Source: Candidatus Schekmanbacteria bacterium (GTDB lineage: Bacteria; CSSED10-310; JACPHN01). From it: a stretch of DNA of 64,000 nt. Below the pieces are notes generated by a model that saw only the letters and a list, made by a program, of their open reading frames with translations, ran no database searches and was not told where the DNA came from. Every line of letters starts with the position of its first letter. The first letter of the stretch is position 1. The stretch spans positions 916-64,915 of the forward strand of contig JACPHN010000268.1 of assembly GCA_016188575.1 (NCBI GenBank), written 5' to 3'. Made by a program: the position numbers and the translations under genes. This document shows, piece by piece, positions 140 to 22,250 of the stretch.

Positions 140-2077
140 TCAAGCAGCTCTTCCATCGCCATTTTCCACCCCGCACCCCGCGCGCTGCAATCGCGTCGCC
201 TCCCCGTGCGCGCCCACCGCCGCGCCGTCCAGGAACGCCCGGCACCACAGCTCGAACGACATCATCGTCCACAGGTGCAGGTCGAGCTCGCGGCCGCGCT
301 GGTGGCGCGCAATCAGCGTCTCGACGTAGCGCCGATCGAACCAGCCCCGCCCGAGGCAGGACGGCGACAGCAGCAGCTCGCGCACGAAGCCGCCGAGCTC
401 GCCGCGGAACCAGCGCCCCAGCGGGATCGCAAACCCCGACTTGGGCCGGTCCAGGATCGCGTCGGGCAGAATGCCGCGCAGCGCCTCCTTGAAAACGTGC
501 TTGCGGACTCCGCCGGCAACCTGCAGCTCGGGCGGGATCGCCGCCGCGAGCTCCACGATCTTGTGATCGAGCAACGGCACGCGCGCCTCGATCGAGCACG
601 CCATGCTCATGCGGTCGACCTTTGTCAGGATGTCGAGCGGCAGGTAGTTTTTCAGATCCAGATACTGCAGCGCCGACAGCCAGCTCCCCGGGACGCGGCC
701 GAGCGACTCCAGAGCAGGCGTCCGCGGATCCGTTCCCAGGAGCTCCGACCACAGCTCCGGGCGAAAGAGCCGGCGCAGCGATTCCGCGCGGAAGAGCGTA
801 CCGGCGTCCAGATACCGCTGGGCGCCGCGCAGCGACTTGTGATGCAGGTAGTTGTGGCCGCGAACGCCCTCCGGCACCACCGCCGCGAGCCAACCGAAGA
901 CCTTGCGCCTCGCCTCGGGACGCCGATCCCACTCCCGCTCGCGCGCCTCGACCGCGTATTTGTCGTAGCCCGCGAACAGCTCGTCGCCGCCGTCTCCCGA
1001 CAGTGCCACCGTGACGTGCTCCGACGCGAGCTTGGAGACCATGTAGGTGGGAATCGCCGAGGTGTCGCCGAACGGTTCGTCCAGATACCACGCGAGATTC
1101 TCCACGATGTCGAGCACGTCGGGCTCCAGCACGAGCTCGGTGTGGATGGTCTGAAACTGCTGGGCGACGGCGCGGGCCGCGGCGAGCTCGTTGTAATCCG
1201 CCTCGGGGAAGCCGATGGAAAAGGTGCGCACGGGTTCGCCGCCGAGGCGGGCCATGGTGGCGACGACGGCAGACGAATCGACGCCGCCGCTCAAGAAGGC
1301 GCCGAGCGGCACGTCGCTCACGAGGTGTAGGCGCACGGACTCCTCGAGCAGCGCGCGCAGCTCGGCGACGTAGTCGTCGAGGCGACGGCCGGGACGGGGC
1401 TGGAAGTCGACGTCCCAGTACGACCGCGCCGCGGGCTCGCGGTCCGGGTCGGCAGCGAGCAGGTGCCCGGCCTCCAGCTTGTGGACGCCCGCGATGATGC
1501 TTTCCTGTCGCGGCGTCGTCAAGAACGTGAACAGATGCCGCACCGCCGCCCAGTTGAGCTCCCGGCCGACCTCGCGAACCTGCAGCATCGCCTTGAGCTC
1601 GGACGCGAACACGACGCTGTCGTTCACCCGCGCCCAGAACAGCGGCTTGATTCCGAGCCGGTCGCGGGCCAACAGCAGGTGCCGCCGGCGCTCGTCCCAC
1701 AGCGCGAACGCGAACATGCCGCGCAGCTCCTGCACGCAGTCTTCGCCGTAGTCTTCGTAGAGGTGCACGATGCACTCGGTATCCGTCCCGGTGCGAAACA
1801 CGTGCCCGCGCGCCTCGAGCTCGCGGCGCAGCTCCTTGAAGTTGTAAATCTCCCCGTTGAAGACGACCCAGATGGTGCCGTCCTCGTTGGCGATCGGCTG
1901 CTCGCCGGTGCAGAGGTCGATGATGCTCAGCCGGCACATCCCCAGGGCGACGTTGCCCGCGACGCGAAAGCCGCGGTGATCGGGCCCCCGGTGGCTCAGC
2001 GTCGCCGCCATGGCCTCCAGCTCGCCGGCGCTCGCCGGCCTACCGTCGAAGTTGATACGGCCTACGATGCCACACAT
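140..2077 (-). CDS. asnB: Asparagine synthetase (glutamine-hydrolysing), AsnB-like amidotransferase; terminal gene of the EPS operon (exosortase-system-associated amidotransferase type)
   Basis: Protein begins MCGIVGRINFDG, the N-terminal Cys nucleophile of class-II glutamine amidotransferases, followed by an Asn-synthetase domain (646 aa). Start placed at the internal ATG (cat at 2075-2077). The 267 upstream codons of the stop-to-stop ORF are Arg/Gly-rich noise and overlap the flippase gene. Confidence 0.85.
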   Translation of the reverse strand: MCGIVGRINFDGRPASAGELEAMAATLSHRGPDHRGFRVAGNVALGMCRLSIIDLCTGEQPIANEDGTIWVVFNGEIYNFKELRRELEARGHVFRTGTDTECIVHLYEDYGEDCVQELRGMFAFALWDERRRHLLLARDRLGIKPLFWARVNDSVVFASELKAMLQVREVGRELNWAAVRHLFTFLTTPRQESIIAGVHKLEAGHLLAADPDREPAARSYWDVDFQPRPGRRLDDYVAELRALLEESVRLHLVSDVPLGAFLSGGVDSSAVVATMARLGGEPVRTFSIGFPEADYNELAAARAVAQQFQTIHTELVLEPDVLDIVENLAWYLDEPFGDTSAIPTYMVSKLASEHVTVALSGDGGDELFAGYDKYAVEAREREWDRRPEARRKVFGWLAAVVPEGVRGHNYLHHKSLRGAQRYLDAGTLFRAESLRRLFRPELWSELLGTDPRTPALESLGRVPGSWLSALQYLDLKNYLPLDILTKVDRMSMACSIEARVPLLDHKIVELAAAIPPELQVAGGVRKHVFKEALRGILPDAILDRPKSGFAIPLGRWFRGELGGFVRELLLSPSCLGRGWFDRRYVETLIARHQRGRELDLHLWTMMSFELWCRAFLDGAAVGAHGEATRLQRAGCGVENGDGRAA

Positions 2078-3657
2078 CGCGAATCTCCTTTGCGTTTTTC
2101 CGCCGGCGGGGCGGGGGTCCCGGGATGGAGCGCCGCGCCGCGACGCGGGCGGCCGCGGCCACGGCCACAAGCCGAGGCGAAACGCCGTGCGAGCGACGTG
2201 ACTCTCGTCACCAGCTCGCGGTCGAGCAAGCTCATCCACGACAGCACCGGGAGCGCACAGCCCACGAACGTCACTGCCGTCGCCACCAGGGAGAGCGCGG
2301 GGCCGCCTCCCAACAGCGCCCGCACGGCCAGCGCCGGCACGGCGAGCAGCGCGCACGCGAGCGCCAACCGGCCCAGGTCGCGCCAGGGCAATACCCGGCT
2401 CGCAGGCACGCCCAGCATCTGCCGCAGGTGCCACAGCGTCATGGTCTTGGCAAAAGCGTTGCCGAGCACCGTGACCAGCACCGCGCCGGCGAGCCCCAGC
2501 CCGAGCAGCAGCGGCACCAGCAGCGCCGCGACGAACAGGAGGCGCGCCAGGTTTTGCACGAGCAGGAAACGGGTCTGCGCGTACGCCCGCAACACAGCAT
2601 CGGTTTGCAGCGCCGAGAGCGGCAAGAGCGCGAGCCAGATCATGAAGATGGGAACGCTGCCCTGATAGCGCTCCGTAAAGAGCAGGACGATGAGGTCGGG
2701 CGCCGTCAGCAGGAGCAGCGCGGCGACCGGAAAAAAGACCATGGCGAGCTTGCGGGTCGTGTCGTGCCAGATCGCCCGCGCCGCCTCCTGGTCCCCCTGG
2801 TGCACGGCCTTGCTCATCCCCACCATCAGCACGTTGCCACCCGACTGCGCCAGGAAGTCGACGAGCGGCACTTGCAGGCACCCTACCGAGTAGACCGCGA
2901 AGACCGCGGCCGAAAACTGGTAGGCGACCGCATACTGGTGAAGATTGACGATGAGCGTGTCGACGATGATCGCGAGCTGAAAGGGGATCGTGTACGCGAG
3001 CTGCTCCCCGAGGATGGCGCCGCGGCGCGGGGCGGCGTCGCGGGCCGGGACCCCGTGCACCACGCCGAGCGTCGTGACGAGCCGCAGCACCCCGTGAGCG
3101 ATCGCGCCCAGCAGCACGCCGCGCAGCCCGCCGAGAACCAGTCCCACGGACAGCAACAGCGCCGCCCGCGCGACGTCCGACAGCGCGTACGCCGCCGACG
3201 CTCGCCAGTGCTGGCCGCTAGCCACCAGCACGATCTCCAGCGGCGCCGACATCAGGGTCAGCGCCAGATACACGCCGATGAGCGGCAGATACGGGCCGAG
3301 CCGGGGGTTGGCGAACAGGCCCGCGATCGCCTCGCTCCCCGCCCACAGCGCCGCGAGGCAGCAGAGCCCCGACAGCCCGAGCACGGCGACGGCGTTGCTC
3401 GCGAAGCGCCTGCGCCCCGCGCTTGCCCGGGGGACGAAGTAATACAGACTCTCCGCCATCCCGAGCTGCGCGAGCGCGAACAGCGTCGTGAATACCAGAA
3501 AGAGCTGGCGATAGGTGCCGAACTCGGTCTGGTCGAAGACGCGCGCGAGCACCACGGGGATGAAGAAGGTCGCCGCGAATCCTACCGCGCGCCCGGCCAT
3601 GAGCAGATACGCCGGCCCGAAGCTCCAGGGGCGGTTGCCGCGGTCCTCGTCACTCAT
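2062..3657 (-). CDS. Polysaccharide/oligosaccharide flippase of the MOP (Wzx-like) family
   Basis: 531-aa protein, hydrophobic throughout with ~12 predicted TM segments, typical of Wzx/MOP flippases. ATG at 3657 (cat 3655-3657). It overlaps the upstream ligase-like gene by 8 bp and the asnB start by 16 bp, consistent with an operon. Confidence 0.7.
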   Translation of the reverse strand: MSDEDRGNRPWSFGPAYLLMAGRAVGFAATFFIPVVLARVFDQTEFGTYRQLFLVFTTLFALAQLGMAESLYYFVPRASAGRRRFASNAVAVLGLSGLCCLAALWAGSEAIAGLFANPRLGPYLPLIGVYLALTLMSAPLEIVLVASGQHWRASAAYALSDVARAALLLSVGLVLGGLRGVLLGAIAHGVLRLVTTLGVVHGVPARDAAPRRGAILGEQLAYTIPFQLAIIVDTLIVNLHQYAVAYQFSAAVFAVYSVGCLQVPLVDFLAQSGGNVLMVGMSKAVHQGDQEAARAIWHDTTRKLAMVFFPVAALLLLTAPDLIVLLFTERYQGSVPIFMIWLALLPLSALQTDAVLRAYAQTRFLLVQNLARLLFVAALLVPLLLGLGLAGAVLVTVLGNAFAKTMTLWHLRQMLGVPASRVLPWRDLGRLALACALLAVPALAVRALLGGGPALSLVATAVTFVGCALPVLSWMSLLDRELVTRVTSLARRFASACGRGRGRPRRGAALHPGTPAPPAEKRKGDSRCVAS

Positions 3658-5107
3658 GAACGCCCCGGTCGGCCGCCGGCTCCGGCTGCGGTTGCCGGCT
3701 CACCGCCCGAGTCGCCGCAACCAGCGCGATGAGCAGGTAGGGGAACCAGCTCAGCACGAAGCCGCCTGCCAGGCCACACGCCAGAAAACCCCACAGCGAG
3801 GCGTGCAGCGCGAAGGCGAGCGGGGCGATCAGGTGCGCGTTTCGCCCGCCCCCCACGCCGCCCACACCGCCCACACCGCCCAGCCCGGCGCGCTCGCCGC
3901 CCGCGCGGCCCCGCCGCGCCAGGCGGCCCGTGCCGACCAGCGCCGCCGCCAGCATCCCGGCAAACGGCACGAACCCCGCCAGACCCGTCTCGGCAAGCGC
4001 CTGAACCAGCGTGTTGTGGCTGTGCAGCCAGCCGTTGGACGGCGCGTCCGCCGGCGCATACAGCGGCCAGCCAAGCATGGAGCAACCCAGCCCGACCCCG
4101 GTCAACGGCCGATCCGCGAACATCTCCAGCCCCACGCGAATCGTCCACAGCCGTTCCTGAACCGTCGTATCCGCCCGCAACCCGGAAAACCCCTCGTCGC
4201 GCGTCCACAGCCGGTCTGCGAACGCCAGGCAGACGATCCCCCCGGCAACCGCCAGGACCCACACGGAGAGCTTGCGCGAGCGCAGCACGCTCAGCCCGAT
4301 CACCACCGCCAGCGCCAGCAGCCCGCCGCGCGAAAACGTCACGAAGATCGCCGGCAGGTAGATCGCCGCGACGCCATACAGGGCCGCGCGCCGCGGCAAG
4401 CTGCCGTCGCGCGCCAGGTACAGCGCCAGCGGCAGGAGAATGACCAGACTGTAGGCGAGCTCGTTGGGGTTTTCGAAAATCCCGATCCAGCCGGCGCGGG
4501 ACCCCTCTACAAGCTGACCGGTCGCGTAGTGCTGCAAGGTGCCGAGGGCGGGAAACAAGCCCCCGACGACCATCACGGTCGCGATGCCGCGGAGGCGTCC
4601 GAGATCCGTGGCGACATTCAGCACGAGCAAGGACACGGCGGCCATCTTTGCCAGATCCGCGAGCTGCTCGGCGGCATACCCCGGCCACAGCGCGCCGGCG
4701 ACCGACAGCGCGGCGGCGGCGACGAAGCCGAGCAACAGGTAGCTTTCCGGCCACACCAGGCGGAACGCACGTTCCGCCACCACCAGCTCGACGGCCAGCA
4801 CGACGAGCGCCAGCAACGCCACCGCCTGCGCCGGCCGCACCGCTTCCAGCGCCGGGACCAGCAGCGCCGCATTGGAGTAGAGCAGGGCCAAAAAGAGCAG
4901 CACGAGCCAGTAGGACAGGCGCCCGCGACGGGCGCCGTGCCGCCGGTCGCTCCCCAGCGGCCCCTCCACCTCACCTCCCCGCGCTTGCGGGGGGCGGCCT
5001 CCAAGCTCTCTCTCTCCCCCCGCTTGCCGGGGAAGGAAGGCAGCGGGGTATGATCGCAGTGGTCGCGTGGCCGCGTCCTGCCGATATTTGACACCGCTTG
5101 CCGTCAT
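3650..5107 (-). CDS. O-antigen ligase / polymerase family protein (Wzy_C; exosortase-associated O-glycosylation ligase type)
   Basis: Multi-TM protein carrying the ligase-family motif (…WLHSHNTLVQALAETGLAG…) in a large periplasmic loop. ATG at 5107 forms an ATGA overlap with the wecB stop. The first ~60 codons are low-complexity and coincide with a GC-rich palindromic repeat, so the true start may be further downstream (~4930). A Gly-rich GGVGGVGGVGGG loop is encoded by a 9-bp tandem repeat. Confidence 0.7.
   Translation of the reverse strand: MTASGVKYRQDAATRPLRSYPAAFLPRQAGGERELGGRPPQARGGEVEGPLGSDRRHGARRGRLSYWLVLLFLALLYSNAALLVPALEAVRPAQAVALLALVVLAVELVVAERAFRLVWPESYLLLGFVAAAALSVAGALWPGYAAEQLADLAKMAAVSLLVLNVATDLGRLRGIATVMVVGGLFPALGTLQHYATGQLVEGSRAGWIGIFENPNELAYSLVILLPLALYLARDGSLPRRAALYGVAAIYLPAIFVTFSRGGLLALAVVIGLSVLRSRKLSVWVLAVAGGIVCLAFADRLWTRDEGFSGLRADTTVQERLWTIRVGLEMFADRPLTGVGLGCSMLGWPLYAPADAPSNGWLHSHNTLVQALAETGLAGFVPFAGMLAAALVGTGRLARRGRAGGERAGLGGVGGVGGVGGGRNAHLIAPLAFALHASLWGFLACGLAGGFVLSWFPYLLIALVAATRAVSRQPQPEPAADRGVHE
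4961..5048. repeat. GC-rich imperfect-palindromic dispersed repeat, copy A (two adjacent units in opposite orientation)
   Basis: 4961-4994 reads cccctccacctcacctccccgcgcttgcgggggg and 5011-5048 reads ctctccccccgcttgccggggaaggaaggcagcgggg. Both share the ccccccgc(N4-8)ggaggtgaggtgggg core with copies at 8786, 12426 and 22447. Confidence 0.6.
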
Positions 5108-6267
5108 GCCCGCACTCCCGGCTCCCGAGCGCGCACCTGTCTGCTGCGCACGCCGCGGTACAGCTCCCGGATCTCGGTGCGGTGCTCGTATAGCGCGCTC
5201 ACGATGCGTTCGGCGGCGTGGCCGTCCCACTTTTCGGGGGTCCGCCGGAGCTTCGGCGGGCCCGACAAGATGGCCCGGGCGCTTTCGAGAATGAGGCCGC
5301 CGTCGAAGCCGACCAGCTCGTTGGTGCCCAGGGTCACGGTGATGGGCCGTTCCGTGTTTTCGCGCAGCGTCAGACAGGGCACCCGCAGCATGGTGGATTC
5401 CTCCTGAACGCCGCCGGAATCGGTCATCACGAATCGGCAATCGCGGAGCAGTCGGATGAAGTCGACGTAGTTGAGCGGCGGGATCCTGCGCACGTGGTCG
5501 AGACTTGCGGTCAGCCCGAGACCGCCAAGCTGGGCCGCCGTGCGCGGATGCACCGGAAAGACGATGGGGACGCGTTTGCCGAGCTCTTCTATGATCGCCG
5601 CCAGGTGCGCAAGGCGGCGGGGATCGTCGACGTTCGCGGGGCGGTGCAGTGTGAGCATGGCGTAGTCGCCGTCCTCGAGCTCGAGCCGACTGTGCACGTC
5701 GGACGACGCGATGCTCGGCCACGACCGCCGGAGCGTGTCGGCAAGCACGTTGCCGGTAAAGAAGATCTTCTCGGCGGCGATCCCTTCCTGGCGCAGATTG
5801 GTGATGGCCTGGGGTTCCGTGACGAAGAGGTAATCGGCGATGGCGTCGGTCAGGACGCGGTTGATCTCCTCGGGCATCTCGCGGTCGAAGCTGCGCAGGC
5901 CCGCCTCGACGTGTGCCACCGGGATGCCGAGGCGCGTGGCCGTCAAGGCCGCCGCGAACGTCGAGGCCACGTCGCCGACCACCAGCACCAGGTCGGGGGG
6001 AACGGCCTCCAGATAGTCCTCCAGGCCCTCGAGCAGGCGCGCGGTCTGGTGGCCGGGTGAGCCGGAACCGACGCCGAGGTGGACATCGGGCTCGGGAATG
6101 TGCAGGCCGCGGAAAAAAGAGCTGGAGAGCGACTCGTCGTAGTGCTGGCCAGTGTGGACCAGACGGGGAGCGATGCCCCGATGGCTGGTCATGGCGTCCA
6201 TGAGCGGCGCGATCTTGACGAAGTTTGGCCGGCAACCGACGACACTGACGATGCTCAACGCGTCCAT
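5104..6267 (-). CDS. wecB: UDP-N-acetylglucosamine 2-epimerase (non-hydrolysing)
   Basis: 388-aa protein MDALSIVSVVGCRPNFVKIAPL…HTGQHYD…DSGGVQEE, the characteristic WecB/MnaA family signature. ATG at 6267 (cat 6265-6267); stop at 5104-5106. Confidence 0.85.
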   Translation of the reverse strand: MDALSIVSVVGCRPNFVKIAPLMDAMTSHRGIAPRLVHTGQHYDESLSSSFFRGLHIPEPDVHLGVGSGSPGHQTARLLEGLEDYLEAVPPDLVLVVGDVASTFAAALTATRLGIPVAHVEAGLRSFDREMPEEINRVLTDAIADYLFVTEPQAITNLRQEGIAAEKIFFTGNVLADTLRRSWPSIASSDVHSRLELEDGDYAMLTLHRPANVDDPRRLAHLAAIIEELGKRVPIVFPVHPRTAAQLGGLGLTASLDHVRRIPPLNYVDFIRLLRDCRFVMTDSGGVQEESTMLRVPCLTLRENTERPITVTLGTNELVGFDGGLILESARAILSGPPKLRRTPEKWDGHAAERIVSALYEHRTEIRELYRGVRSRQVRAREPGVRA

Positions 6268-7544
6268 AGCTCGGTCCTCCTGAGGACTGCGTGCGTCGTT
6301 TCGGCCAGGGGTCGACTCTCTGCCAGACCGGCCGAATCGGTGGACGAGGTCATTGTGAGTGACTGCGTCGCAGCGCCCCCCGCCGCAAGCGGGGGGAGGC
6401 AAGGCAGGGGGTCCTGGCGAACGGGCGCTTGATCCAGGTCCGCCGGTCGCTCGGCGTGGCGGTCTGAGCAGGCGCGCAGAACCTCGAAAATGCCGTTGAT
6501 CTGAGCGCTCATGACCGCGCCCGAGAACTGCCCGTCCGCGCCCTTGCAGCAGTTTTCCCACAGGTGTTTGCGCGGCACGGTAAGCTGCGGGAACGCGGCG
6601 TGGCGGTGCCGGCAGGTGGTACAGGCGTGGGCATAGCCGGCCGCCGCGACGGCCTCGACGTCCGCGGCGCTGAACCGGCCGGCGGGGTAGGCGAAGCAGT
6701 CGACGCCGTGGCCGAGCTCGGCGGCGAGCTCCTGGCGCGACTCCGCAAGCTCCCGCCGCACGCGCGCGCGTGATTCGAGCGGCAGGATGATGTGGGTTTG
6801 CGTGTGGGAACCAATGGTGACCCCGGCGCGGTCGAGCGCACGGATGGCCGGCCAGTCCAGGATGCGCAGCTCGTCGAGGTCGCTCTCGTCGACGCCGACT
6901 GCGGACTCCAGCGCCGCGACGAGCTCGCCGAGAGCGGCGCAGGTGACCCGGGCGCAGAGCAGCTCGGTGAGGGTCGCCGCCGACCCGGATCCCGCGGGCA
7001 CCGCCCCAAGGAGCACCTCCGGCGACACGCCGAGTTCCCGCAGCGCCGCAAGCGACAAACAACCGCCTTTCCCCCACCGCGCCGCCGCGGTGTGGAGCAG
7101 CCGGTAGAGGCGGTCGTGCAGCGGAATGCCCGCGCCGCCCGCCAGGTCGGTCACGACGAACACGGTCGCCGGGACGCCGAGCGCGCGGAGGACCGGCAAG
7201 CCGTGCTCGGCCACGTCGCGGTAGCCGTCGTCGAAGGTGACGGCGGCGACGGGGGCGGCGCCTGCCTGATCCGCCCCCTGGTGCGCCGCCGCGAGCTCGT
7301 CCAGCGCGACGAAGCGATGGGAACGCCCCACCCAGCGCAGTTGCCGGGCGAGCATGTCCTGGGTGATCTGCATCGCCGGCATGGCGTGCGCTTCGGACTG
7401 CATCCGCTGCACGACGCGATGGTAGCACAGCACCAGTGGTCGATAGCGCCGCCGCGACACCGCGCCGATTGCCTCCGCGAGGCCCAACGCGTGCAGGCTG
7501 CGCGCCACTGTGCTCTTTATCGTGCGCCGCCAGGGTGCGCTCAT
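6255..7544 (-). CDS. Polysaccharide deacetylase (NodB-homology domain) with a ~150-aa Cys-rich C-terminal extension
   Basis: N-terminal …LVLCYHRVV… and …VTFDDGYRD… motifs are typical of PF01522 deacetylases (PgaB/IcaB-like). ATG at 7544 gives an ATGA overlap with the upstream FemAB-like gene stop. 429 aa. Confidence 0.7.
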   Translation of the reverse strand: MSAPWRRTIKSTVARSLHALGLAEAIGAVSRRRYRPLVLCYHRVVQRMQSEAHAMPAMQITQDMLARQLRWVGRSHRFVALDELAAAHQGADQAGAAPVAAVTFDDGYRDVAEHGLPVLRALGVPATVFVVTDLAGGAGIPLHDRLYRLLHTAAARWGKGGCLSLAALRELGVSPEVLLGAVPAGSGSAATLTELLCARVTCAALGELVAALESAVGVDESDLDELRILDWPAIRALDRAGVTIGSHTQTHIILPLESRARVRRELAESRQELAAELGHGVDCFAYPAGRFSAADVEAVAAAGYAHACTTCRHRHAAFPQLTVPRKHLWENCCKGADGQFSGAVMSAQINGIFEVLRACSDRHAERPADLDQAPVRQDPLPCLPPLAAGGAATQSLTMTSSTDSAGLAESRPLAETTHAVLRRTELWTR

Positions 7545-8755: not shown

Positions 8756-8785
8756 GGCGACTCCCTTCCTGAATCCACTACTTTC

Positions 8786-8819
8786 CACGCCTCCCCCCGC
8801 TTGTGGAGGTGAGGTGGGG
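8786..8819. repeat. GC-rich imperfect-palindromic dispersed repeat, copy B (intergenic)
   Basis: cacgcctccccccgcttgtggaggtgaggtgggg. A C-rich arm pairs with a G-rich arm (ggaggtgaggtgggg is the reverse complement of ccccacctcacctcc). Confidence 0.6.
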
Positions 8820-8973
8820 TGGAATGCTCCCCTCTGTGGATCCTGAGTAAGGTGGCCCCGCCGAGCTCTTCGAGCAACGGTCCCCCCAGCCTCCGGGAGA
8901 GGGGCCTCGGAAGTGTAGTAGAGGAACCGGCTTCCGAGCTCATTGGGGCCACCTATGTAAACACGTGCGGTGC

Positions 8974-14163: not shown

Positions 14164-16014
14164 CTATTCTACGGTGACGCTCTTGGCGAGGTTGCGGGGT
14201 TTGTCGACGTCGCAGCCGCGGCGCACGCCGATGTGGTAGGCGAGGAGCTGCAGCGGCAGAACCGTCAGCAGCGGTGAAAGCAACGGGTGCGTCGGCGCGA
14301 CAAAGATGGTTTCGTCCGCCTTTTCCTGCACCTCGTTGTCGCCTTCGGTAGCGATGGCGATGACCTTGCCGTCTCGCCCTTTCGCCTCCTCGACGTTCCC
14401 CATCGTCTTGCGGTAGACGTGATCTTGTGGGGCGACCACGACGACGGGCATCTGCGCGTCGATCAGGGCGATCGGACCGTGCTTCATCTCGCCGGCAGGG
14501 TAGCCCTCTGCGTGGGCATACGAGATTTCCTTCAGCTTCAAGGCGCCCTCCAGGGCAATCGGGTAGCTGATGCCGCGGCCCAGGAAGAGAAAGCTCGCGT
14601 GGTCGTGGAATCGCTCACAAAGCGGTTCGATCGCCTTGCGGGTGGCAAGGAATCGCTCCATGTCCTCGCTGAGCCGGTCGAGCCCGGCCACGTGCTCGGC
14701 GATCTGCTGGCGCGACAGCGCGCCGCGCAGCCCGCCGAGGTAGACCCCAAGCGCGAAGAGCAGCGCCACCTGGGTGGTGAACGCCTTGGTCGACGCCACG
14801 CCGATCTCGGGGCCGGCGTGGGTGTAGAGCACCGCGTCGGATTCGCGGGCGATCGAGCTGCCGACGACATTGCAAATCGACAGCACCACGGCGCCATGAT
14901 CGCGCGCCTCTCGCAAGCCGGCCAGAGTATCTGCCGTCTCGCCGGATTGGCTGATGCCCAGCACGAGGCTGTTCTTGCCCATCACGGGGTTGCGATAGCG
15001 AAACTCGCTGGCATAGTCGACGTCCACGGGCATCCGCGCCAGCGACTCGATCATGAGCTTGCCGATGAGGCCCGCGTGCAGGGAGGTGCCGCACGCGAGA
15101 ATCTGCAACCGCGGCGCCTTCCGGAGACGCTGCGTCAGGGCGCCGTTGAGGCGCGAGCAGAGATCGTCCTCGAGCACCACGCGGTCGCCGCGCACGCGAC
15201 CGCACAAGGTATCTCGCAGGGCACGCGGCTGCTCGAGAATCTCCTTGAGCATGAAGTGCGGGTAGCCCTCCTTTTCCGCCATTTCCGCGGTCCACTCCAG
15301 ATGCTGGCGGCGACATTCGATCGTTCTGGCCGCGGCATCCTGGAGCTCGACGTGGTCCGCTCGCAGCACGACAATCTCGCCATCGGCCAGGAAATGAACG
15401 TCGCGCGTGTAGGGCAGAATGGCGGGAACGTCCGATGCCACGATCATCTCGTGCTCGCCGAGCCCGACCACGAGCGGCAGGCCGCGGCGCACCGCAACGA
15501 TCTTGGAGGGCTCTGTCGTCGCGATGACCACCAGCCCGAAGACCCCCTCGATCTCGGCGATCGCGCCCCGCACCGCGTCTTCCAGCTTGCCGTTCAGGCG
15601 GGCCTCGATGAGGTGCGCGAGGACCTCGGAGTCGGTTTCGCTGTGGAAGATGTGCCCTTCAGCAATGAGGCGCCGCCGCAGCTCCACGTAGTTCTCGATG
15701 ATGCCGTTATGCGCGACCAGCACCCGGCCGGTGCAATCCGCGTGGGGATGCGCGTTGGCCTCCGTCGGCCGGCCGTGAGTCGCCCACCGGGTGTGTCCAA
15801 TGCCACAATGCCCTGCGGCCAGCGCCTGACCGAGAGTCGCCACCTTTTCCTCGAGCCCGCCGATGCGACCCGCGTAACGCAACAGGTGCATCGTGCCGTT
15901 GAGGGTGACGGCGATCCCGCAGGAGTCGTAGCCGCGGTATTCGAGCCGCTTGAGAGCGGAGACCAGCACGGGAGCGCTCTGCCGGTCGCCAACGTAGCCG
16001 ATGAGTCCACACAT
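14164..16014 (-). CDS. glmS: Glutamine--fructose-6-phosphate aminotransferase (isomerising)
   Basis: 616-aa protein MCGLIGYVG… (N-terminal Cys), two SIS domains (…SQSGETADTL…), C-terminus …KSVTVE. Canonical GlmS throughout. Confidence 0.95.
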   Translation of the reverse strand: MCGLIGYVGDRQSAPVLVSALKRLEYRGYDSCGIAVTLNGTMHLLRYAGRIGGLEEKVATLGQALAAGHCGIGHTRWATHGRPTEANAHPHADCTGRVLVAHNGIIENYVELRRRLIAEGHIFHSETDSEVLAHLIEARLNGKLEDAVRGAIAEIEGVFGLVVIATTEPSKIVAVRRGLPLVVGLGEHEMIVASDVPAILPYTRDVHFLADGEIVVLRADHVELQDAAARTIECRRQHLEWTAEMAEKEGYPHFMLKEILEQPRALRDTLCGRVRGDRVVLEDDLCSRLNGALTQRLRKAPRLQILACGTSLHAGLIGKLMIESLARMPVDVDYASEFRYRNPVMGKNSLVLGISQSGETADTLAGLREARDHGAVVLSICNVVGSSIARESDAVLYTHAGPEIGVASTKAFTTQVALLFALGVYLGGLRGALSRQQIAEHVAGLDRLSEDMERFLATRKAIEPLCERFHDHASFLFLGRGISYPIALEGALKLKEISYAHAEGYPAGEMKHGPIALIDAQMPVVVVAPQDHVYRKTMGNVEEAKGRDGKVIAIATEGDNEVQEKADETIFVAPTHPLLSPLLTVLPLQLLAYHIGVRRGCDVDKPRNLAKSVTVE

Positions 16015-16018
16015 GGTC

Positions 16019-17074
16019 CTACCTCGCGATCAGGGTCAGAGGGGGAGTCGGCGATCTCTTCACCGCAAGCTCGGGACGCTGGCGGCGGGCAAGCAGGAGC
16101 AGGAGCTCACCGAGGCGATCGCAATCGTGTTTCACCTCGTCGCAGTCCTCGCGCGACAGCAGGTTGGCGGCCAGCGGCGCCGTTCCCATCTGGCCGATCT
16201 CGCGCACGTCGTTGCGCACCGGCGCGGCGCCGAGCGCGGCGTAGCGGGCGCGCCGATCGTCCGGAATGGCCCCCGAGCTCAAGATACAGACGTCGATCAG
16301 GCCTCCTTCCAGGTATTCGGAGAGCACGCGCAGGTGGTCGGCGGCCGTGAAACCGTCCGTCTCGCCGGGCTGGGTCATGAGATTGCAAACGTACACCTTG
16401 AGCGCCGACGACAGGCGAATGGCGTCGGCAACGCCGTCCACGAGCAGGTTGGGCACGACGCTGGTGTACAGGCTGCCCGGCCCGAGCACGATCAGGTCGG
16501 AAAAGACCAGGGATTGCAGCACCCCACCCGACGCCGGCGGCGTGCAGGGTTCGAGCCACACCCGCGTGATCCGGCCGCGTTGCAGCGGGATCTGCGCCTC
16601 GCCGCGGACCACGCTGCCGTCGGCGAAGGCGGCGCAGAGGGTCACCGGGCTATCGGTGACGGGGAGCACGCGACCGCTGGCGTGCAGCAGCCCCGATGCC
16701 TGTTGGCTCGCCTTCGCCAGGCTGCCGTGCTCCTCGCAGTAGGCGGCGAGGATGAGGTTGCCGACAACCTGTCCCTGCAGCCCGTTGCCGCCGCGGAACC
16801 GGTACTGGAACAGGTCGCATAGCGGCGGCTCGCTGTCGGACAGCGCCGCCATGCAGTTGCGGATATCACCCACCGCGGGGATGCCGAGGTGTCTGCGAAG
16901 CCGACCCGTGGAGCCGCCGTTGTCAGCGGTGGTCACCACGGCCGAAATTTGCACGTCCCAGTCCGCGCCGCCGGCCCCCTGCTTGATCGCTGCGCGCTTC
17001 AAGCCTCGCAATACGGTTGACAATCCGTGTCCGCCGCCGACACCGACAATCCTGACGATGGTATTGGTTTTCAT
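16019..17074 (-). CDS. YvcK/GlmR-type gluconeogenesis factor (UPF0052, CofD-like fold)
   Basis: 351-aa protein MKTNTIVRIVGVGGGHGLS…VVTTADNGGSTGRLR…, the signature of the YvcK/UPF0052 family. Lies 4 nt upstream of glmS on the same strand. Confidence 0.8.
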   Translation of the reverse strand: MKTNTIVRIVGVGGGHGLSTVLRGLKRAAIKQGAGGADWDVQISAVVTTADNGGSTGRLRRHLGIPAVGDIRNCMAALSDSEPPLCDLFQYRFRGGNGLQGQVVGNLILAAYCEEHGSLAKASQQASGLLHASGRVLPVTDSPVTLCAAFADGSVVRGEAQIPLQRGRITRVWLEPCTPPASGGVLQSLVFSDLIVLGPGSLYTSVVPNLLVDGVADAIRLSSALKVYVCNLMTQPGETDGFTAADHLRVLSEYLEGGLIDVCILSSGAIPDDRRARYAALGAAPVRNDVREIGQMGTAPLAANLLSREDCDEVKHDCDRLGELLLLLARRQRPELAVKRSPTPPLTLIAR

Positions 17075-17077: not shown

Positions 17078-18172
17078 TTACCCGTCCTGTCGATGATCCA
17101 AGCCGAAGATGACAACTTTGATGGTGCGAAGAAGAATGAAGACATCAAACCACACAGAAGCGTGCTTCGCGTAGTACAGGTCGTATTGCAGCTTCTCGTA
17201 GGCATCTTCAATCGAGTTGCCATAGTCGTAGCTGACCTGTGCCCAACCGGTAATACCCGGTTTGATGTAGTGTCTGAGGTCGTAGTAGGGGATCTGTTCT
17301 CCCAACATGCGCACGAAGCAGGGGCGCTCGGGCCTGGGTCCGACGAAGGTCATGTCGCCGCGCAGGACGTTGATGACCTGCGGGACCTCGTCGAGGTGCA
17401 GGCGGCGCAGGATGCGGCCGACCCGGGTAACGCGGTCATCGACGTCGCGCGCCCACATCGGTCCGGTATCCTGCTCAGCATCATGGCGCATGGAGCGGAA
17501 CTTGTACATCATGAAGGTGTCGCCATCCTTGCCGACGCGGTCCTGCGCGAACAGCACGGGGCCGCGGGATTCGAGCTTGATCGCCAGAGCGATCAGGAGC
17601 AGAATGGGCGCGGCCAGGACGAGGAGGGCGGCGGCGCAGACGATGTCGAGCCAGCGTTTGAGGCGGTCATGGCGAGCTGAGAAATGAAAGCCGTCGCAGA
17701 AGATCAGCCAGTCCGGCCGCACCGCATCGAGCCACACCTTGTGATGGCGGTGCTCGTAGAAGTCCGCCGCTTCTTCGATCTCGATGCCCAGCAGCTTGCC
17801 TTCGATCAGCGTCGAGGCGATGTCGGCAGCGCCATAGGCGTTGGGTTCGGTAATGACGATGCGCGAGACGCGCCCGGCGCGAATCAGGTCGCGAAGGCGT
17901 TCAGAGCTCAGCTCTTCGCTCGCGCCGCTACTGCGCGCGGAACGCATGGCCGTGGGCGTTCGCCCGTTGCCGTTGCGGTAGGCCGAGGTGCTCAGCATCG
18001 CGCCCTCGCCGCGGCCGTTGCGGGCGGCCTCCGCGGCAGGCGGCGCGGCGCCATCGAGCTCGCGGTGCAGCGTCGCCGCCAGGGCGCCGTTGCCGAGAAT
18101 AACGATGCCGGCCGAAGGGCGCTCGCGAGTCGGGTGCCAGAATTCGGTTCGGGGCACTTCAGTTCTTATCAT
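17078..18172 (-). CDS. Undecaprenyl-phosphate sugar phosphotransferase (bacterial sugar transferase, WbaP/EpsB type with N-terminal CoA-binding-like domain)
   Basis: 365-aa protein from MIRTEVPRTEF… with a C-terminal …PVLFAQDRVGKDGDTFMMYKFRSM…DEVPQVINVLRGDMTFVGPRPERP… block (Bac_transf). ATG at 18172 overlaps the Wzc-like gene end by 14 nt. The longer ORF upstream is out-of-frame noise. Confidence 0.8.
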   Translation of the reverse strand: MIRTEVPRTEFWHPTRERPSAGIVILGNGALAATLHRELDGAAPPAAEAARNGRGEGAMLSTSAYRNGNGRTPTAMRSARSSGASEELSSERLRDLIRAGRVSRIVITEPNAYGAADIASTLIEGKLLGIEIEEAADFYEHRHHKVWLDAVRPDWLIFCDGFHFSARHDRLKRWLDIVCAAALLVLAAPILLLIALAIKLESRGPVLFAQDRVGKDGDTFMMYKFRSMRHDAEQDTGPMWARDVDDRVTRVGRILRRLHLDEVPQVINVLRGDMTFVGPRPERPCFVRMLGEQIPYYDLRHYIKPGITGWAQVSYDYGNSIEDAYEKLQYDLYYAKHASVWFDVFILLRTIKVVIFGLDHRQDG

Positions 18173-20267
18173 GAACAGATTCCTCCGATGTTGCCGAGAC
18201 CAGGTAGCGCTCGGAGTAATACCGGTACGCATAGGCATAGGGTGCCGCGACGAAGCTGACGTCGTTGAGCACCACACCGAGCAGCTTCGTGGTGTCGAAG
18301 CTCTCGAAGGCGCGCTGAACCAGCTCGCGCCGGGTTGTCCGGGCGCGCACCACGAACAGCGTGCCGTCCACCAGCCGTTCCAGCACGTGGCTGTCCACCA
18401 TCGGCAGGACGGGGGGGGAATCGATGACGATGCAGGCGAAGCGCCGGCGCAGGCGGCCGAGGAGGCGCTCCAGGGAAGTGCGCAGCAACGAGCCGCCGGG
18501 CACGGACTGGCGCGCGCCACCGGTCAGGACGTAGAGGTTTCCTTGGCGGTGGATGTACTCCCAGAGGTCGGCGTCGGCGTTGCTGAGTAGCTCGGAAAGA
18601 CCTTTTTCCAGCGGCAGATGGAGATACGCGTGGAGGTGGGGCTTGCGCACGTCGGCGTCGACGAGCAGCACGGGACCCTCGAGGCTTTGTGAAAGGGCCA
18701 CCCCGAGGTTGATCGCGGTCGTCGATTTTCCTTCAGCCCCGGCGGCGCTCGTCACCATCACGGTCGTGCTTGGGGCTGCGGCCAGGCGCCGGGAAACGGC
18801 GTGAGCGAGGATGCGGTATTGCTCGGACTCCACGGAAGCCGGATTGGTGATCGTGACGACGTTCGGTGCCACGCCCAGAGGGACGCCGTTGCGCCGCGGC
18901 GGCACGATCGTGGGGATGGCGAGCAGCACCGGAGCGTCGCTGGCGGCGCGAAAGTCTTCGAGGTCGCGAAACGTGGTGTCCAGATGCTCCCGCGCGAGAC
19001 CGGCGCCGAGGCCGCAGCACAGCCCGGCGACAAGGCCCATCGCCAGGATCCTCAGGCGGCGCGGGCTCACGGGCTGGATCGGGGTGACGGCGGCCTCCGC
19101 AATGGTGAGCACCGCGCCGGTCCCGACGCCGAAGCGCTCGCCGAGCCTGGCCATCTGCAGCTCCTCGACCAGGCGTTGCCGTTGGGCGACGGCGGCGTCG
19201 TACTCGCGCACGAGCTGCGCCTCGGCGGGGGACAGCGCCTCCGTAGCCGCGGTCCCCCGGTTGATCGCTGCCTGCAGCGAGGTGTCTCCGCGCTCGCTCT
19301 GATACGGGGCAAGCTGCTGATTGACCGTGGCGAGCTCCTCCTGGAGGCGCGCCTGGCGGGATCGCAAGCCACGCAGCGTCCGGCCGGTCTGCCGTTCATG
19401 GCCCGCGGTTTCCTTCTCGAGGGCGGCCATTTCTTGCTGCACGGCGACCACTTCCGGGTGCGCGATGGTGTAGCGGCTCAGCAGCTCCCGGAACTGGGTG
19501 CGCAGCGCGGCAAGGCGTCCCTCTGCGGACTGCATGGCGGTGCCCGTGTCCGCGGCACGCGCGACGCGACGTTCCTGCTCGAGCTCACTGTCGATGTCCC
19601 GCAACGCACTCTCGAGGTTCGCCCGGCGGGCGCGCAGCACCGCGAGCTCGGAGTTCGTCCGCGAGCTCAACGCCTGCAGCTTTTGCTCCTGGCTCTCCAG
19701 GTTCCGTTCCGCTGCGGCCAGCTCCGCCTCGAGTCCGGCGATCGTCCATTGCGCCTGCCGGCGGGCACCGCCGCCTTGACCGGTGACGAGAATTTGGCCG
19801 AGGTGGTTTGCTACCTGCGCGGCGCGCCGCGGGCTCGTATCCTTGAAGCCGATGGCGACCGTCTGGGTCCCCTGGACCTGCACGGTGATGCGGTTGCGCA
19901 TCTCGGTGAGCTGCTGCTCGCTGAAGCCGCCGAGCTCGGGCTCGTAAAGGCGATATTCGCGCATGATGTCCGCCAGGACGGAACGACGCAGGAGTCGCTC
20001 GCCAATCGCGCCCAGCGCCCGCTGTGCGTCATCCGGTGTGCGGAAGCGATCCAGCGCCTCCGGTCCACCCATGGTTTCGGCAACCACCAGGAGCTCCGCG
20101 CGGTACTGGTCGGGCAGCCGCATCTGCCATCCCGCGGCTGCTGCCTCGAGAAGCAGGATTCCGGCCAACACCCAGACGCGGCGGCGTTTCAGCGTCTCCA
20201 GCAGGTACCTCACGGAGAGCTCGGTGCCGGCGTCTTTCTTGGACAGGCACTGATGATGTTTACTCAT
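18159..20267 (-). CDS. Polysaccharide co-polymerase fused to a BY-kinase (Wzc-like; chain-length determinant plus tyrosine autokinase)
   Basis: 702-aa protein with an N-terminal TM helix, long coiled-coil periplasmic region, second TM helix (…LRILAMGLVAGLCCGLGAGLA…), then a P-loop ATPase (…VTSAAGAEGKSTTAINLGVAL…VLLVDADVRKP…) and a Tyr-containing C-terminal tail (…YAYAYRYYSERY…). Confidence 0.8.
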   Translation of the reverse strand: MSKHHQCLSKKDAGTELSVRYLLETLKRRRVWVLAGILLLEAAAAGWQMRLPDQYRAELLVVAETMGGPEALDRFRTPDDAQRALGAIGERLLRRSVLADIMREYRLYEPELGGFSEQQLTEMRNRITVQVQGTQTVAIGFKDTSPRRAAQVANHLGQILVTGQGGGARRQAQWTIAGLEAELAAAERNLESQEQKLQALSSRTNSELAVLRARRANLESALRDIDSELEQERRVARAADTGTAMQSAEGRLAALRTQFRELLSRYTIAHPEVVAVQQEMAALEKETAGHERQTGRTLRGLRSRQARLQEELATVNQQLAPYQSERGDTSLQAAINRGTAATEALSPAEAQLVREYDAAVAQRQRLVEELQMARLGERFGVGTGAVLTIAEAAVTPIQPVSPRRLRILAMGLVAGLCCGLGAGLAREHLDTTFRDLEDFRAASDAPVLLAIPTIVPPRRNGVPLGVAPNVVTITNPASVESEQYRILAHAVSRRLAAAPSTTVMVTSAAGAEGKSTTAINLGVALSQSLEGPVLLVDADVRKPHLHAYLHLPLEKGLSELLSNADADLWEYIHRQGNLYVLTGGARQSVPGGSLLRTSLERLLGRLRRRFACIVIDSPPVLPMVDSHVLERLVDGTLFVVRARTTRRELVQRAFESFDTTKLLGVVLNDVSFVAAPYAYAYRYYSERYLVSATSEESVHDKN

Positions 20268-21561
20268 AAGGCAACACCGTGCGAAGCCGGTCGACTTCCT
20301 CGTCCCAGGCGCGGGACGCGGTGTCCGAGGCTGTCAGGTTGAGGCGCAAGCCGAGCGCGAAGCGCCGTGCGGTCAGGGCCGCAAGCTCCGGGGTGGAAAG
20401 CTGCTGATCGAGGAGCTGCGCGTCCAGGAAGGCGTCGAGGTTGTTGCGCAGGCGCACGTTCAGGTGGGCTCGCGAGCTGAGGGTAGTAAGCTCGCCGCCG
20501 GTGCTGAGCGCGGCGCGCGCCCGCTGCAGCCGCGCCTGGTAGCGAAGGCGGCTGCCGAGACGGCCCGCGAAGGCCAGGCTATAGATGCGCGCCGTGGCAC
20601 TTCCGGAAACGGCGCCGCCATAGGGGTCTGGCGCTCCACCTTCGCCCGCGTCGGGGCCGCTGGACAGACCGGCGCCTTCGAGCGCCAACACTCTGCGGTC
20701 AGCGGCGCCGCTGAGCACGTGGCGGCCGCCGCGGAGCCGCACGGAGGCCTCGACGCCCATCACGATCTCGACCTCTGCCGTGCGCTCGTAGCGCGCCACG
20801 CCGCTGCGGATGCGAGCCGCCAGGGCGGGGCGCGGAGCGAGGGAGCAGGTGGCCTCGACCTGGTGCACCGGCTCCGAGGTCTCGGCGAGGCCGGCGCCGG
20901 CGCCCGCGGCGTCGGTCCGCGTCGCCGCGTACAGATAGGTATAGCCAAGGCCGACGCTCGTCGAGCTCGCGAGCTGCCACGTCAGGCTCAGGTTTCCCGT
21001 TCCCGCGCCCTGATCGATGGGCACGTCGGCGGATTCCAACAGGAGTCGGCCGTGGCTCACACTGGCCTCGAGGCTTGCCGCCAGATCCGTGCGGCGGGTC
21101 AGCTCGTGGCGAGCGCCCACGGCGAGCCGCCCCTGCCAGAATGGGCTGCTGGCTACCGCCAGTAGCGGTTGACCGAGCTCTCTGCCGGCGTCGCGGCTGG
21201 AGAAGACGGAGCCAAATACGGTAAAACCCGCGCGGCCCACGTCGGTCCCATAGCGCAGCCCCGCCTGTTGGCGCGCGGCGAGCACGCGCCCCGTCTCCCG
21301 CACCCACTCCACGTGCGGCTCATAGGCGGCGATCAGCTCGCTCACGGCGCGGCGGTACGACACCAGGACGCTTTGCCGCAATGTCAGGTAGGAGCGGGCT
21401 TCGCCCTCGGGCGTCCGCTCGGACGTGCGGGACTCGTGAGCGACGCTCACCGCCGCGGGCAGCAGCCAACGCGCCGCTGCCCCGGAACCAGTGGGGCTCG
21501 CCAGGGCGGCGAGCATTGCCAGCGTCGCCCCGAGGAACCTCAGCACCGTCGATGTCGTCAT
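20260..21561 (-). CDS. Predicted outer-membrane beta-barrel protein of EPS loci (uncharacterised, signal peptide)
   Basis: 433-aa protein with N-terminal signal peptide MTTSTVLRFLGATLAMLAALASP, then an alternating hydrophobic/polar, Gly/Ala/Ser/Thr/Arg-rich sequence with no TM helices. Sits between the Wza-like and Wzc-like genes. Confidence 0.5.
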   Translation of the reverse strand: MTTSTVLRFLGATLAMLAALASPTGSGAAARWLLPAAVSVAHESRTSERTPEGEARSYLTLRQSVLVSYRRAVSELIAAYEPHVEWVRETGRVLAARQQAGLRYGTDVGRAGFTVFGSVFSSRDAGRELGQPLLAVASSPFWQGRLAVGARHELTRRTDLAASLEASVSHGRLLLESADVPIDQGAGTGNLSLTWQLASSTSVGLGYTYLYAATRTDAAGAGAGLAETSEPVHQVEATCSLAPRPALAARIRSGVARYERTAEVEIVMGVEASVRLRGGRHVLSGAADRRVLALEGAGLSSGPDAGEGGAPDPYGGAVSGSATARIYSLAFAGRLGSRLRYQARLQRARAALSTGGELTTLSSRAHLNVRLRNNLDAFLDAQLLDQQLSTPELAALTARRFALGLRLNLTASDTASRAWDEEVDRLRTVLPYE

Positions 21562-21572: not shown

Positions 21573-22175
21573 TCAGCGCACGTAAATGACGTCCGCCGGC
21601 TGGATGTCGAAGGGGTTTTCCGCACCATTGAGCATGGCCTTGATATTCACTGTGATCTTGCGCTCGGCGTCCGATCCCTGGCTGCGGATGACGATGACGC
21701 TCGCGCGGCGCGCGAACTCCGTGAATCCGCCGGCGAGAGCGATGGCGTCGAGCACCGAGAGGCGCTGCCGGACCACGTACCAGTCAGGACGCGTCACCTC
21801 GCCGAAAACGGCGATGCGGTGGCTGTTGATTTCCTTGACCACGACGGTGACGATCGGGTGCTCGATATACTTCTGCAGCCGCCTGGCGATCTCCTCCTGG
21901 AGGTCTTGCGGGATGCGTCCGCTGGCGCGGATCTCGCCTGCGAGGGGCACCGAGAGGTAGCCATCCGGGCGCACGATGACCGTTCGGGAAATGTCGGGCT
22001 CGCGCCAGACGAAGACCTCCACGACGTCCTCGGGTCCCAGGCGGTAGGTGTCTGTGGCGAGGAGCTCGTCTGCGGGCGCCGCATCGTCCGCTCCGGCGGC
22101 GGCGGCGAGGAGCGACGGAGCGGCGAGAGTCAGCGCGAAGAAGAGCGACAAGCAATGGCGTATAAGGAGATACAT
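21573..22175 (-). CDS. Periplasmic polysaccharide export protein (short Wza/Poly_export + SLBB type)
   Basis: 200-aa protein with a signal peptide (MYLLIRHCLSLFFALTLAAPSLLAAAAG) and a …YRLGPEDVVEVFVWREPDISRTVIVRPDGYLSVPLAGEIRASG… Poly_export motif. First gene downstream of the sigma-54 promoter. Confidence 0.75.
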   Translation of the reverse strand: MYLLIRHCLSLFFALTLAAPSLLAAAAGADDAAPADELLATDTYRLGPEDVVEVFVWREPDISRTVIVRPDGYLSVPLAGEIRASGRIPQDLQEEIARRLQKYIEHPIVTVVVKEINSHRIAVFGEVTRPDWYVVRQRLSVLDAIALAGGFTEFARRASVIVIRSQGSDAERKITVNIKAMLNGAENPFDIQPADVIYVR

Positions 22176-22233
22176 AAGAACCGTTTACTCTTTGTTAGAC
22201 CGATGTTGTTTTGCTGGCGTCCGCGGAAGAGCT

Positions 22234-22250
22234 TGCAAGGTCTATGCCAC
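22234..22250 (-). promoter_or_regulatory. Sigma-54 (RpoN) promoter for the EPS operon
   Basis: The minus strand reads G-TGGCAT-AGACC-TTGCA-A. This matches the TGGCAC-N5-TTGCA consensus with correct GG/GC spacing and a single mismatch at a weakly conserved position. Predicted TSS is ~48 nt upstream of the Wza-like ATG. Confidence 0.55.

Follow-up and report, generated by a model that had tools for sequence, protein, structure and literature searches.

The 64,000-nt stretch of Candidatus Schekmanbacteria DNA analyzed here (contig JACPHN010000268.1; the whole stretch is called the window below) carries a large polysaccharide operon on its minus strand, which runs from position 22175 to the left edge. 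We consider it probable (about 0.65) that this is one sigma-54-transcribed operon encoding a complete Wzx/Wzy-dependent exopolysaccharide or capsule pathway, and that it belongs to a conserved locus type physically unlinked to exosortase. A phosphoglycosyl transferase, a MOP flippase, a Wzy_C protein, a polysaccharide co-polymerase (PCP) and an OPX protein are all encoded in this one locus.

The window has a G+C content of 64–71%, so raw lists of open reading frames (ORFs) are noisy; genes were called by codon-position G+C (GC3) frame analysis combined with ORF mapping and inspection of start sites. This upheld the 16 co-directional, tightly packed minus-strand genes that a first-pass annotation of the same DNA had placed between a Wza-like gene at 22175 and asnB at 140. 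The spacings changed: junctions are gaps of 3–11 nt or overlaps of 4–23 nt, rather than gaps of 4–14 nt, and true 4-nt ATGA start/stop overlaps occur at five junctions instead of seven. At three further ATGA starts the overlap is 8 or 14 nt, the probable reason for the earlier count. AsnB, previously taken as terminal, is not the last gene, and the operon has at least 17. A 17th co-directional frame opens at 162 in a 23-nt overlap with the asnB stop and has the GC3 phase expected of coding sequence; no terminator-like site was found where we looked for one downstream of asnB. The 54 visible residues of this partial gene have no Pfam match, and a first impression of an ankyrin-repeat protein was dropped as unsupported by Pfam. 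Every class in the earlier gene list was confirmed except a CoA-binding domain in the sugar transferase, where Bac_transf alone was detected. That list had left out five genes, encoding a YvcK/GlmR-like CofD-family protein, GlmS, a UDP-N-acetylhexosamine-type dehydrogenase, a family-2 glycosyltransferase (GT2) and a DegT-like protein. The genes, numbered from the first transcribed (G16) to asnB (G1), with G0 the partial 17th gene, are as follows, with model scores given against cut-offs:

21573..22175, minus strand: G16, short periplasmic OPX protein of 200 amino acids (aa) with a signal peptide; Poly_export plus one SLBB domain
20260..21561, minus strand: G15, 18-stranded outer-membrane beta-barrel of 433 aa, from a predicted structure model
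18159..20267, minus strand: G14, fused polysaccharide co-polymerase/BY-kinase (Wzc-like, PCP-2a), from NCBIfam and Pfam
17078..18172, minus strand: G13, initiating polyprenyl-phosphate sugar-phosphate transferase of 364 aa (Bac_transf)
16019..17074, minus strand: G12, YvcK/GlmR-like CofD-family UDP-GlcNAc-binding protein (TIGR01826, 324.6 against 196; PF01933)
14164..16014, minus strand: G11, GlmS, glutamine--fructose-6-phosphate transaminase (TIGR01135, 803 against 418)
12803..14152, minus strand: G10, nucleotide-sugar 6-dehydrogenase of the UDP-ManNAc/UDP-GlcNAc (WecC/WbpA/TviB) type (TIGR03026, 425 against 190)
11372..12799, minus strand: G9, GT2 fused to a small transmembrane peptide (PF00535)
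10173..11375, minus strand: G8, Acetyltransf_6 (FemAB-like) GNAT (PF13480, 130 bits)
8974..10176, minus strand: G7, DegT/DnrJ/EryC1-family protein, like pyridoxal phosphate-dependent sugar aminotransferases (PF01041)
7541..8977, minus strand: G6, second Acetyltransf_6 (FemAB-like) GNAT (PF13480, 130 bits)
6255..7544, minus strand: G5, CE4 polysaccharide deacetylase (PF01522)
5104..6267, minus strand: G4, WecB-type UDP-GlcNAc 2-epimerase (TIGR00236, 323.5 against 210; PF02350)
3650..5107, minus strand: G3, Wzy_C-domain membrane protein (PF04932), with an alternative GTG start at 4969
2062..3657, minus strand: G2, MOP-family flippase (Wzx; PF13440, Polysacc_synt_3) with 12 transmembrane segments
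140..2077, minus strand: G1, AsnB/WbpS-like glutamine-dependent amidotransferase (TIGR01536 passed, 515 against 267)
1..162, minus strand: G0, start of the 17th gene (ATG at 162), crossing the left window edge

Together, G13 and the single GT2, G9, would make a short repeat unit on undecaprenyl phosphate, which G2 would flip across the membrane. G13 passed the generic model TIGR03025 (332 against a cut-off of 296) and lacks an N-terminal transmembrane bundle; a 480-aa long form was rejected because the extension brings no homology and overlaps G14. Polymerization would fall to G3, the presumed polymerase, which has about ten transmembrane segments (439 aa in the Logan gene call) and 141 homologs at 41–52% identity. 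Its control would fall to the Wzc-like co-polymerase/tyrosine kinase G14, whose best matches are TIGR03007 and TIGR03018, both below cut-off. With Pfam, Wzz and GNVR were weak (under gathering scores) and CbiA and AAA_31 were matched; the protein has two transmembrane helices, a Walker A motif (GAEGKST) and a C-terminal YAYAYRYYSERY tyrosine cluster.

These genes could also be read as a protein O-glycosylation or lipopolysaccharide O-antigen cluster in which G3 is a WaaL/PglL-like ligase or oligosaccharyltransferase. The only NCBIfam match of G3 is named 'putative O-glycosylation ligase, exosortase A system-associated', Pfam Wzy_C includes ligases as well as polymerases, and some sources name its homologs 'O-antigen ligase'. 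However, that match (TIGR03097) scores 81, far under its cut-off of 188, and the OPX protein, the export barrel and the Wzc-type co-polymerase/tyrosine kinase are hallmarks of a secreted high-molecular-weight polymer, which needs a polymerase; G3 is the only candidate for it. We regard this alternative as very unlikely.

In the Wzx/Wzy pathway that we favor, the polymer would exit by way of a composite translocon in which the short periplasmic OPX protein G16 is combined with the barrel G15. The Pfam domains of G16 (PF02563, PF10531 and PF22461) span residues 41–199, which corresponds to a D1/D2-only OPX protein; Wza_C was not found with Pfam, and the protein matched the EpsY model NF041843 with E=6e-30. 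For G15, neither Pfam nor NCBIfam returned a family match. Its 18-stranded fold comes from a model built on an alignment, a single-sequence AlphaFold2 model (pLDDT 36.7) having been set aside. When 1.84 billion representatives were searched exhaustively with HMMER, only 17 relatives came up, all remote (22–31% identity), and in the relatives' loci that we retrieved the G15-like gene always directly follows a short OPX gene. Assignment of G15 to the XrtA-associated outer-membrane family TIGR03016 was rejected (hhalign probability 16%; 2 bits with a hidden Markov model (HMM); a faint match in 1 of 18 members).

Composite OPX/beta-barrel systems with OPX proteins of the D1D2 or Class-3 type have been described (PMC9601211, PMC9603273). 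The closest parallel here is EpsY/EpsX of Myxococcus xanthus, with the Class-3 OPX systems (PMC9601211, PMC9603273, PMC12819527), which likewise have a Poly_export plus SLBB protein, of 200 aa in the window, without an outer-membrane-spanning domain. Also shared is the order of an OPX gene, an 18-stranded barrel and a PCP with a long periplasmic region, a synteny kept in relatives. The architecture of G16 and its invariant gene pairing with a predicted barrel in the 16- to 18-strand range fit such a translocon, and we presume G15 to be the partner of G16. G15 shows no detectable sequence relationship to described families, and the likeness is one of architecture.

We then compared the operon with exosortase A (XrtA)/PEP-CTERM exopolysaccharide (EPS) loci (PMC1569441; Zoogloea sp. 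locus L045), whose accessory gene set it had been said to reproduce. Both have a short OPX protein, a chain-length determinant with a tyrosine kinase, an EpsB-type transferase, a CE4 deacetylase, a FemAB-like GNAT, a Wzy_C protein, an AsnB-like amidotransferase and sigma-54-type control. The operon might then be a bona fide exosortase EPS locus (XrtA-type or another Xrt), with the exosortase and its PEP-CTERM substrates encoded beyond the left edge (coordinate 1) or in another part of the genome and the aminoacylated sugar serving as acceptor for sorted proteins. Consistent with this, XrtA/PEP-CTERM-associated models are the best NCBIfam matches of six products (counting the two parts of G14 separately), sigma-54 control is typical of PEP-CTERM systems too (PMC1569441), and the operon extends past the window edge. 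The six matches all lie below cut-off:

TIGR03027, short OPX protein G16: 147.6, cut-off 180
TIGR03007, chain-length determinant in G14: 135, cut-off 279
TIGR03018, tyrosine kinase domain in G14: 132, cut-off 231
TIGR03013, sugar transferase G13: 366, cut-off 393
TIGR03097, Wzy_C protein G3 ('O-glycosylation ligase'): 81, cut-off 188
TIGR03108, AsnB G1: 631, cut-off 817

Three further models, TIGR03019, TIGR03006 and TIGR03016, gave no match to the two GNATs, the deacetylase and the outer-membrane protein even at E<=10, so that 0 of 9 locus-specific models were passed, whereas the generic TIGR03025 and TIGR01536 were. HMMs built from real XrtA-locus proteins likewise indicated that these products are unrelated to the XrtA-locus subfamilies, scoring 14 bits (G8) and 13 bits (G6) for FemAB, 11 bits for the deacetylase (G5) and 2 bits for the outer-membrane protein (G15). 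By contrast, the genuine XrtA locus L045, recovered in our AsnB search and used as a positive control, passed all seven models scanned (TIGR03006, 03019, 03108, 03016, 03018, 03015 and 03088) with wide margins, and its XrtA-EpsI fusion scored 326 against a cut-off of 208. Its passing proteins comprise the deacetylase, FemAB protein, XrtA-EpsI fusion, family-4 glycosyltransferase (GT4), AsnB, ATPase, outer-membrane protein and kinase. The proposed likeness to the exosortase A accessory set is thus borne out for the enzyme classes and for the identity of the best matches, but not at the level of the locus-specific subfamilies.

The AsnB homolog and the FemAB pair had been singled out as particularly diagnostic, a view that our data do not support. 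As noted above, the GNATs miss TIGR03019. An XrtA-EpsI HMM detected an exosortase within 10 kb in 12 of the 80 loci encoding a related AsnB, all 12 proteobacterial, and such an AsnB is therefore not diagnostic. In a neighbor-joining tree of 106 AsnB-like proteins, the XrtA-adjacent AsnBs form one clade; the window AsnB lies outside it and groups with Blastocatellia/Pyrinomonadaceae-type sequences. On the other side, the trio of deacetylase, GNAT and amidotransferase does adjoin exosortases in Proteobacteria, and a second AsnB paralog within a genuine XrtA locus also falls under the TIGR03108 cut-off, at 540 bits.

The reported absence of EpsH, EpsI and PrsK/PrsR from the 64 kb was confirmed. 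NCBIfam and Pfam searches of the predicted genes found no exosortase, EpsI or PrsK, the XrtA-EpsI HMM had no match at E<=10 on any six-frame ORF of the window, and PrsT was not matched in the window. The PrsR model TIGR02915 scored 310 against a cut-off of 503 on the enhancer-binding protein adjacent to the operon, behind the NifA and FlbD models. Compared with XrtA/PEP-CTERM loci, the operon thus lacks exosortase/EpsI and PrsK/PrsT, as well as the TIGR03015 ATPase, the TIGR03016 outer-membrane protein and the stp-type GT4. Gene order also differs from L045, where the chain-length determinant and kinase are separate rather than fused, and real XrtA loci have the exosortase between the FemAB and AsnB genes, where the window has WecB, Wzy and Wzx.

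One protein at the far edge of the window had been described as PEP-CTERM-like, and its hydrophobic and basic C-terminal tail could be counted in favor of an exosortase system:

63437 to beyond 64000, minus strand: BNR/Ycf48-like repeat protein; tail of VPASG, a hydrophobic stretch and RPRR, then 22 extra residues

This description did not hold, as neither TIGR02595 nor PF07589 recognized the tail even at E<=10, PF07589 was present in 0 of the 120 best homologs, and the tail was absent from all five homologs whose sequences we read. Weighing these observations together with the syntenic loci described next, we judge an exosortase EPS locus unlikely.

Seven other environmental contigs carry gene-for-gene syntenic loci (L084-L090; 37–65% identity, confirmed for the individual genes with tblastn), for which up to 10 kb of DNA was retrieved on each side of the anchor gene. 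Four of the 17 G15 relatives, those with retrieved contigs (P0002-P0005), have the same operon architecture, in the order short OPX, G15-like protein, Wzc, phosphoglycosyl transferase, CofD/YvcK-like protein, dehydrogenase, GT2, an ORF of 55–58 aa, one or two Acetyltransf_6 proteins, deacetylase and WecB. Homologs of G3 led to four more loci, including one on a 471-kb Bryobacteraceae contig, that keep the window's order of GT2, GNAT, DegT, GNAT, deacetylase, (WecB), Wzy, Wzx and AsnB. Among the called genes of the syntenic loci, none matched the exosortase family PF09721, and an XrtA HMM found nothing meaningful among their ORFs (best E=0.1, 6.9 bits); all seven loci are thus without exosortase in the retrieved DNA. 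This synteny argues for a recurrent locus type of its own rather than a one-off XrtA remnant. Of the two readings offered by the first-pass annotation, an exosortase outside the window or an exosortase-independent derivative of such a locus, we therefore favor the second in so far as it describes a locus type without a linked exosortase; descent from an XrtA locus does not follow from these data.

Downstream of AsnB, the loci found through G3 homologs carry variable genes (GT4 enzymes, a heparinase-like lyase, a second AsnB and methyltransferases), and the three syntenic loci that reach past AsnB (L087, L089 and L090) have no obvious equivalent of G0. Many Acidobacteriota-type loci have two or three AsnB-like paralogs per polysaccharide cluster (L005, L008, L012, L014, L089 and L090), and two of the paralogs in L089 and in L090 are separated by a heparinase II/III-like lyase gene. 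Three loci contain a gene for a secreted NHL-repeat protein, inserted between the Wzc/CofD and transferase genes (L088, 2619-4407; L089, 636-2420; L090, 2282-4063); the window operon has no such gene. The proteins of L089 and L090 and a 171-aa ORF of L088 have a common C-terminal sequence, ...YSGLAPGLVGVYQ...NTA..AV.., which we take to be of a Solibacter type. They were rejected as PEP-CTERM substrates because their shared C-terminus has neither a PEP motif nor a hydrophobic stretch nor a basic tail.

Transcription of the operon by sigma-54 is well supported, judging from the promoter sequence and its conservation. The relevant elements upstream of G16 are:

22234..22249, minus strand: sigma-54 (-24/-12) promoter TGGCATAGACCTTGCA (TGGCAT-N5-TTGCA), about 60 nt upstream of G16
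22540..23247, minus strand: LuxR/NarL-type response regulator (Response_reg and GerE), directly upstream of the operon and co-directional with it
23328..23343, minus strand: second match to the sigma-54 promoter motif, TGGTATGGCGATTGCA, some 80 nt upstream of the gene for the response regulator
23710..24747, plus strand: divergent sigma-54 enhancer-binding protein (PF00158, PF25601, PF02954)

The motif TGGYAY-N5-TTGCW has exactly two matches in the 64 kb, against 0.09 expected, and the first gene is preceded by correctly spaced -24 GG and -12 GC elements with the gene of an enhancer-binding protein nearby. In each of the four orthologous loci for which this region is available (L083-L086), GGCAC-N5-TTGC precedes the OPX gene by 55–85 nt; counting the window, the pattern GGYAY-N5-TTGC is conserved upstream of the export gene in five of five loci. 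A relaxed form of the motif occurs only eight times in the 368 kb scanned, always in an intergenic position upstream of a gene. The enhancer-binding protein consists solely of AAA+ and HTH_8 domains, lacking both a receiver and a sensor, and is the likely activator. The two regulators and the second promoter, which would make the LuxR-type regulator itself sigma-54-controlled, suggest a small regulatory cascade before the operon.

The remaining genes point to the chemistry of the polymer, which we infer from family membership. G11 and G12 would raise the hexosamine supply, their adjacency suggesting a dedicated boost to UDP-GlcNAc. Here glmS and the YvcK/GlmR-family gene directly adjoin each other (14164-17074, minus strand). 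The pair recalls the GlmR (YvcK)-GlmS control of UDP-GlcNAc synthesis in Bacillus subtilis, where GlmR binds UDP-GlcNAc and is proposed to stimulate GlmS (PMC7525490, PMC6171935); in the window, it lies in a polysaccharide operon of a diderm bacterium. The CofD-family gene is kept in the syntenic loci, in several of them without an adjacent glmS. Further along, WecB (G4) and the WecC/WbpA-type dehydrogenase G10, whose best equivalog-level matches are UDP-ManNAc dehydrogenases, suggest conversion of UDP-GlcNAc into UDP-N-acetyl-hexosaminuronic acid.

The C-terminus of the glycosyltransferase G9 carries a motif, LLSVPYHFVMLNWAAV, that matches small ORFs of L084-L087 and L090. In these relatives a transmembrane micro-ORF of 55–58 aa with the motif PYTFVLMNWAAV lies 3' of the GT2 gene, and in the window it is fused into the C-terminus of G9 (11372-11600, minus strand). 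The sites are:

L084, 12064-12240: micro-ORF
L085, 10907-11074: micro-ORF
L086, 10082-10255: micro-ORF
L087, 2804-2980: micro-ORF
L090, 5149-5319: micro-ORF

The tailoring enzymes would act on the N-acetylated sugar. On the model of VimE, VimA and WbpS, the N-acetyl group would be taken off by the CE4 deacetylase G5, the amine would receive a new acyl group, possibly an amino acid, from the two FemAB-like GNATs, and the uronic acid would be amidated by the AsnB/WbpS-like G1. In Porphyromonas gingivalis and Tannerella forsythia, the product assigned to VimE, VimA and WbpS is a uronic acid or uronamide with an N-seryl or N-glycyl group, and the same trio has already been noticed beside exosortases (PMC7468200). 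The correspondence is at the domain level only, and comprises PF01522, two copies of PF13480 and an AsnB whose best match is TIGR03108, a family that contains WbpS and WbqG (PMC7468200). The Wbp/Vim pathway and the window operon also both encode a UDP-HexNAc dehydrogenase, a DegT-family protein and a 2-epimerase together with the trio. They differ in that the Wbp/Vim pathway has one GNAT rather than two and includes, among its WbpA/B/E/D/I enzymes, the WbpB oxidoreductase and the WbpD acetyltransferase, whose steps lead to a 2,3-diamino uronic acid; among the 16 operon products, NCBIfam and Pfam identified neither a GFO_IDH_MocA-type (WbpB) nor a hexapeptide-repeat acetyltransferase (WbpD) gene. 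Moreover, that pathway belongs to the biology of A-type lipopolysaccharide (A-LPS) and of type IX secretion (T9SS), whereas here the trio is part of a Wzx/Wzy/Wzc/OPX export operon.

At the protein level, orthologs of G1 reach 58–65% identity in L087, L089 and L090, and its best AsnB match among GTDB representatives is 63%. For G6, no relative was found in the PDB. G7 matches TlmJ in the PDB (E=2e-15), keeps the Lys at the aligned 'lyKtlp' position and has full-length orthologs at 46–52% identity in L088-L090.

The Wbp/Vim comparison raises a further possibility, namely that the polymer carries an amino-acid-substituted hexosaminuronamide, a free-standing counterpart to the 'linking sugar' of Wbp/Vim, whose amine is the acceptor for covalent attachment of surface proteins by an unlinked or unrecognized sorting transpeptidase. 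If this were true, the operon would account for the polysaccharide half of a system that anchors proteins without being coupled to any exosortase gene, and the polymer would leave through 18-stranded translocon barrels of a new sequence family. We consider it decidedly unlikely.

Several observations weigh against the Wzx/Wzy-dependent, exosortase-unlinked reading that we prefer. Besides the initiating enzyme, the operon has only one glycosyltransferase, and G3 could be a ligase or an O-oligosaccharyltransferase instead of a polymerase. The assigned sugar chemistry is deduced throughout from family membership. A DegT aminotransferase would need a keto-sugar, and no WbpB-like oxidoreductase was found to provide it; in L087, a methyltransferase and an FAD oxidase take the place of the DegT gene. 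The regulators are not conserved beside the syntenic loci. Finally, our search covered the 64-kb window; about 4.3 kb of the same NCBI contig and the rest of the genome lie outside it, and an unlinked exosortase that uses this polymer might be encoded there.

Elsewhere in the window, genes for a sucrose-phosphate synthase (phosphatase-like domain) and a sucrose synthase, both above their NCBIfam cut-offs, adjoin at 44796-49533 (plus strand), beside a PfkB-family sugar kinase gene (43948-44868). On the minus strand, we also noted genes for a DUF5939-adenylate/guanylate cyclase (26937-28268), a 779-aa Ser/Thr kinase (30805-33144) and a GspE/PilB-type ATPase (52768-54552).

These results indicate that exosortase loci are not the only place where the 'exosortase accessory' enzyme set, namely the short OPX protein, Wzc, EpsB-type transferase, deacetylase, FemAB-like GNATs and AsnB-like amidotransferase, is found. 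Soil and groundwater bacteria carry a distinct, conserved version of it that is under sigma-54 control and has no neighboring exosortase, and annotation by best hit would therefore over-call PEP-CTERM systems. The operon is a compact candidate system for the action of the deacetylase/GNAT/amidotransferase trio on a secreted polysaccharide, and is one case in which a polysaccharide operon has recruited a GlmS/GlmR-like supply pair. G15 represents a new, very sparse family of candidate partner barrels for short OPX exporters. Current understanding of these loci is thereby refined rather than overturned.

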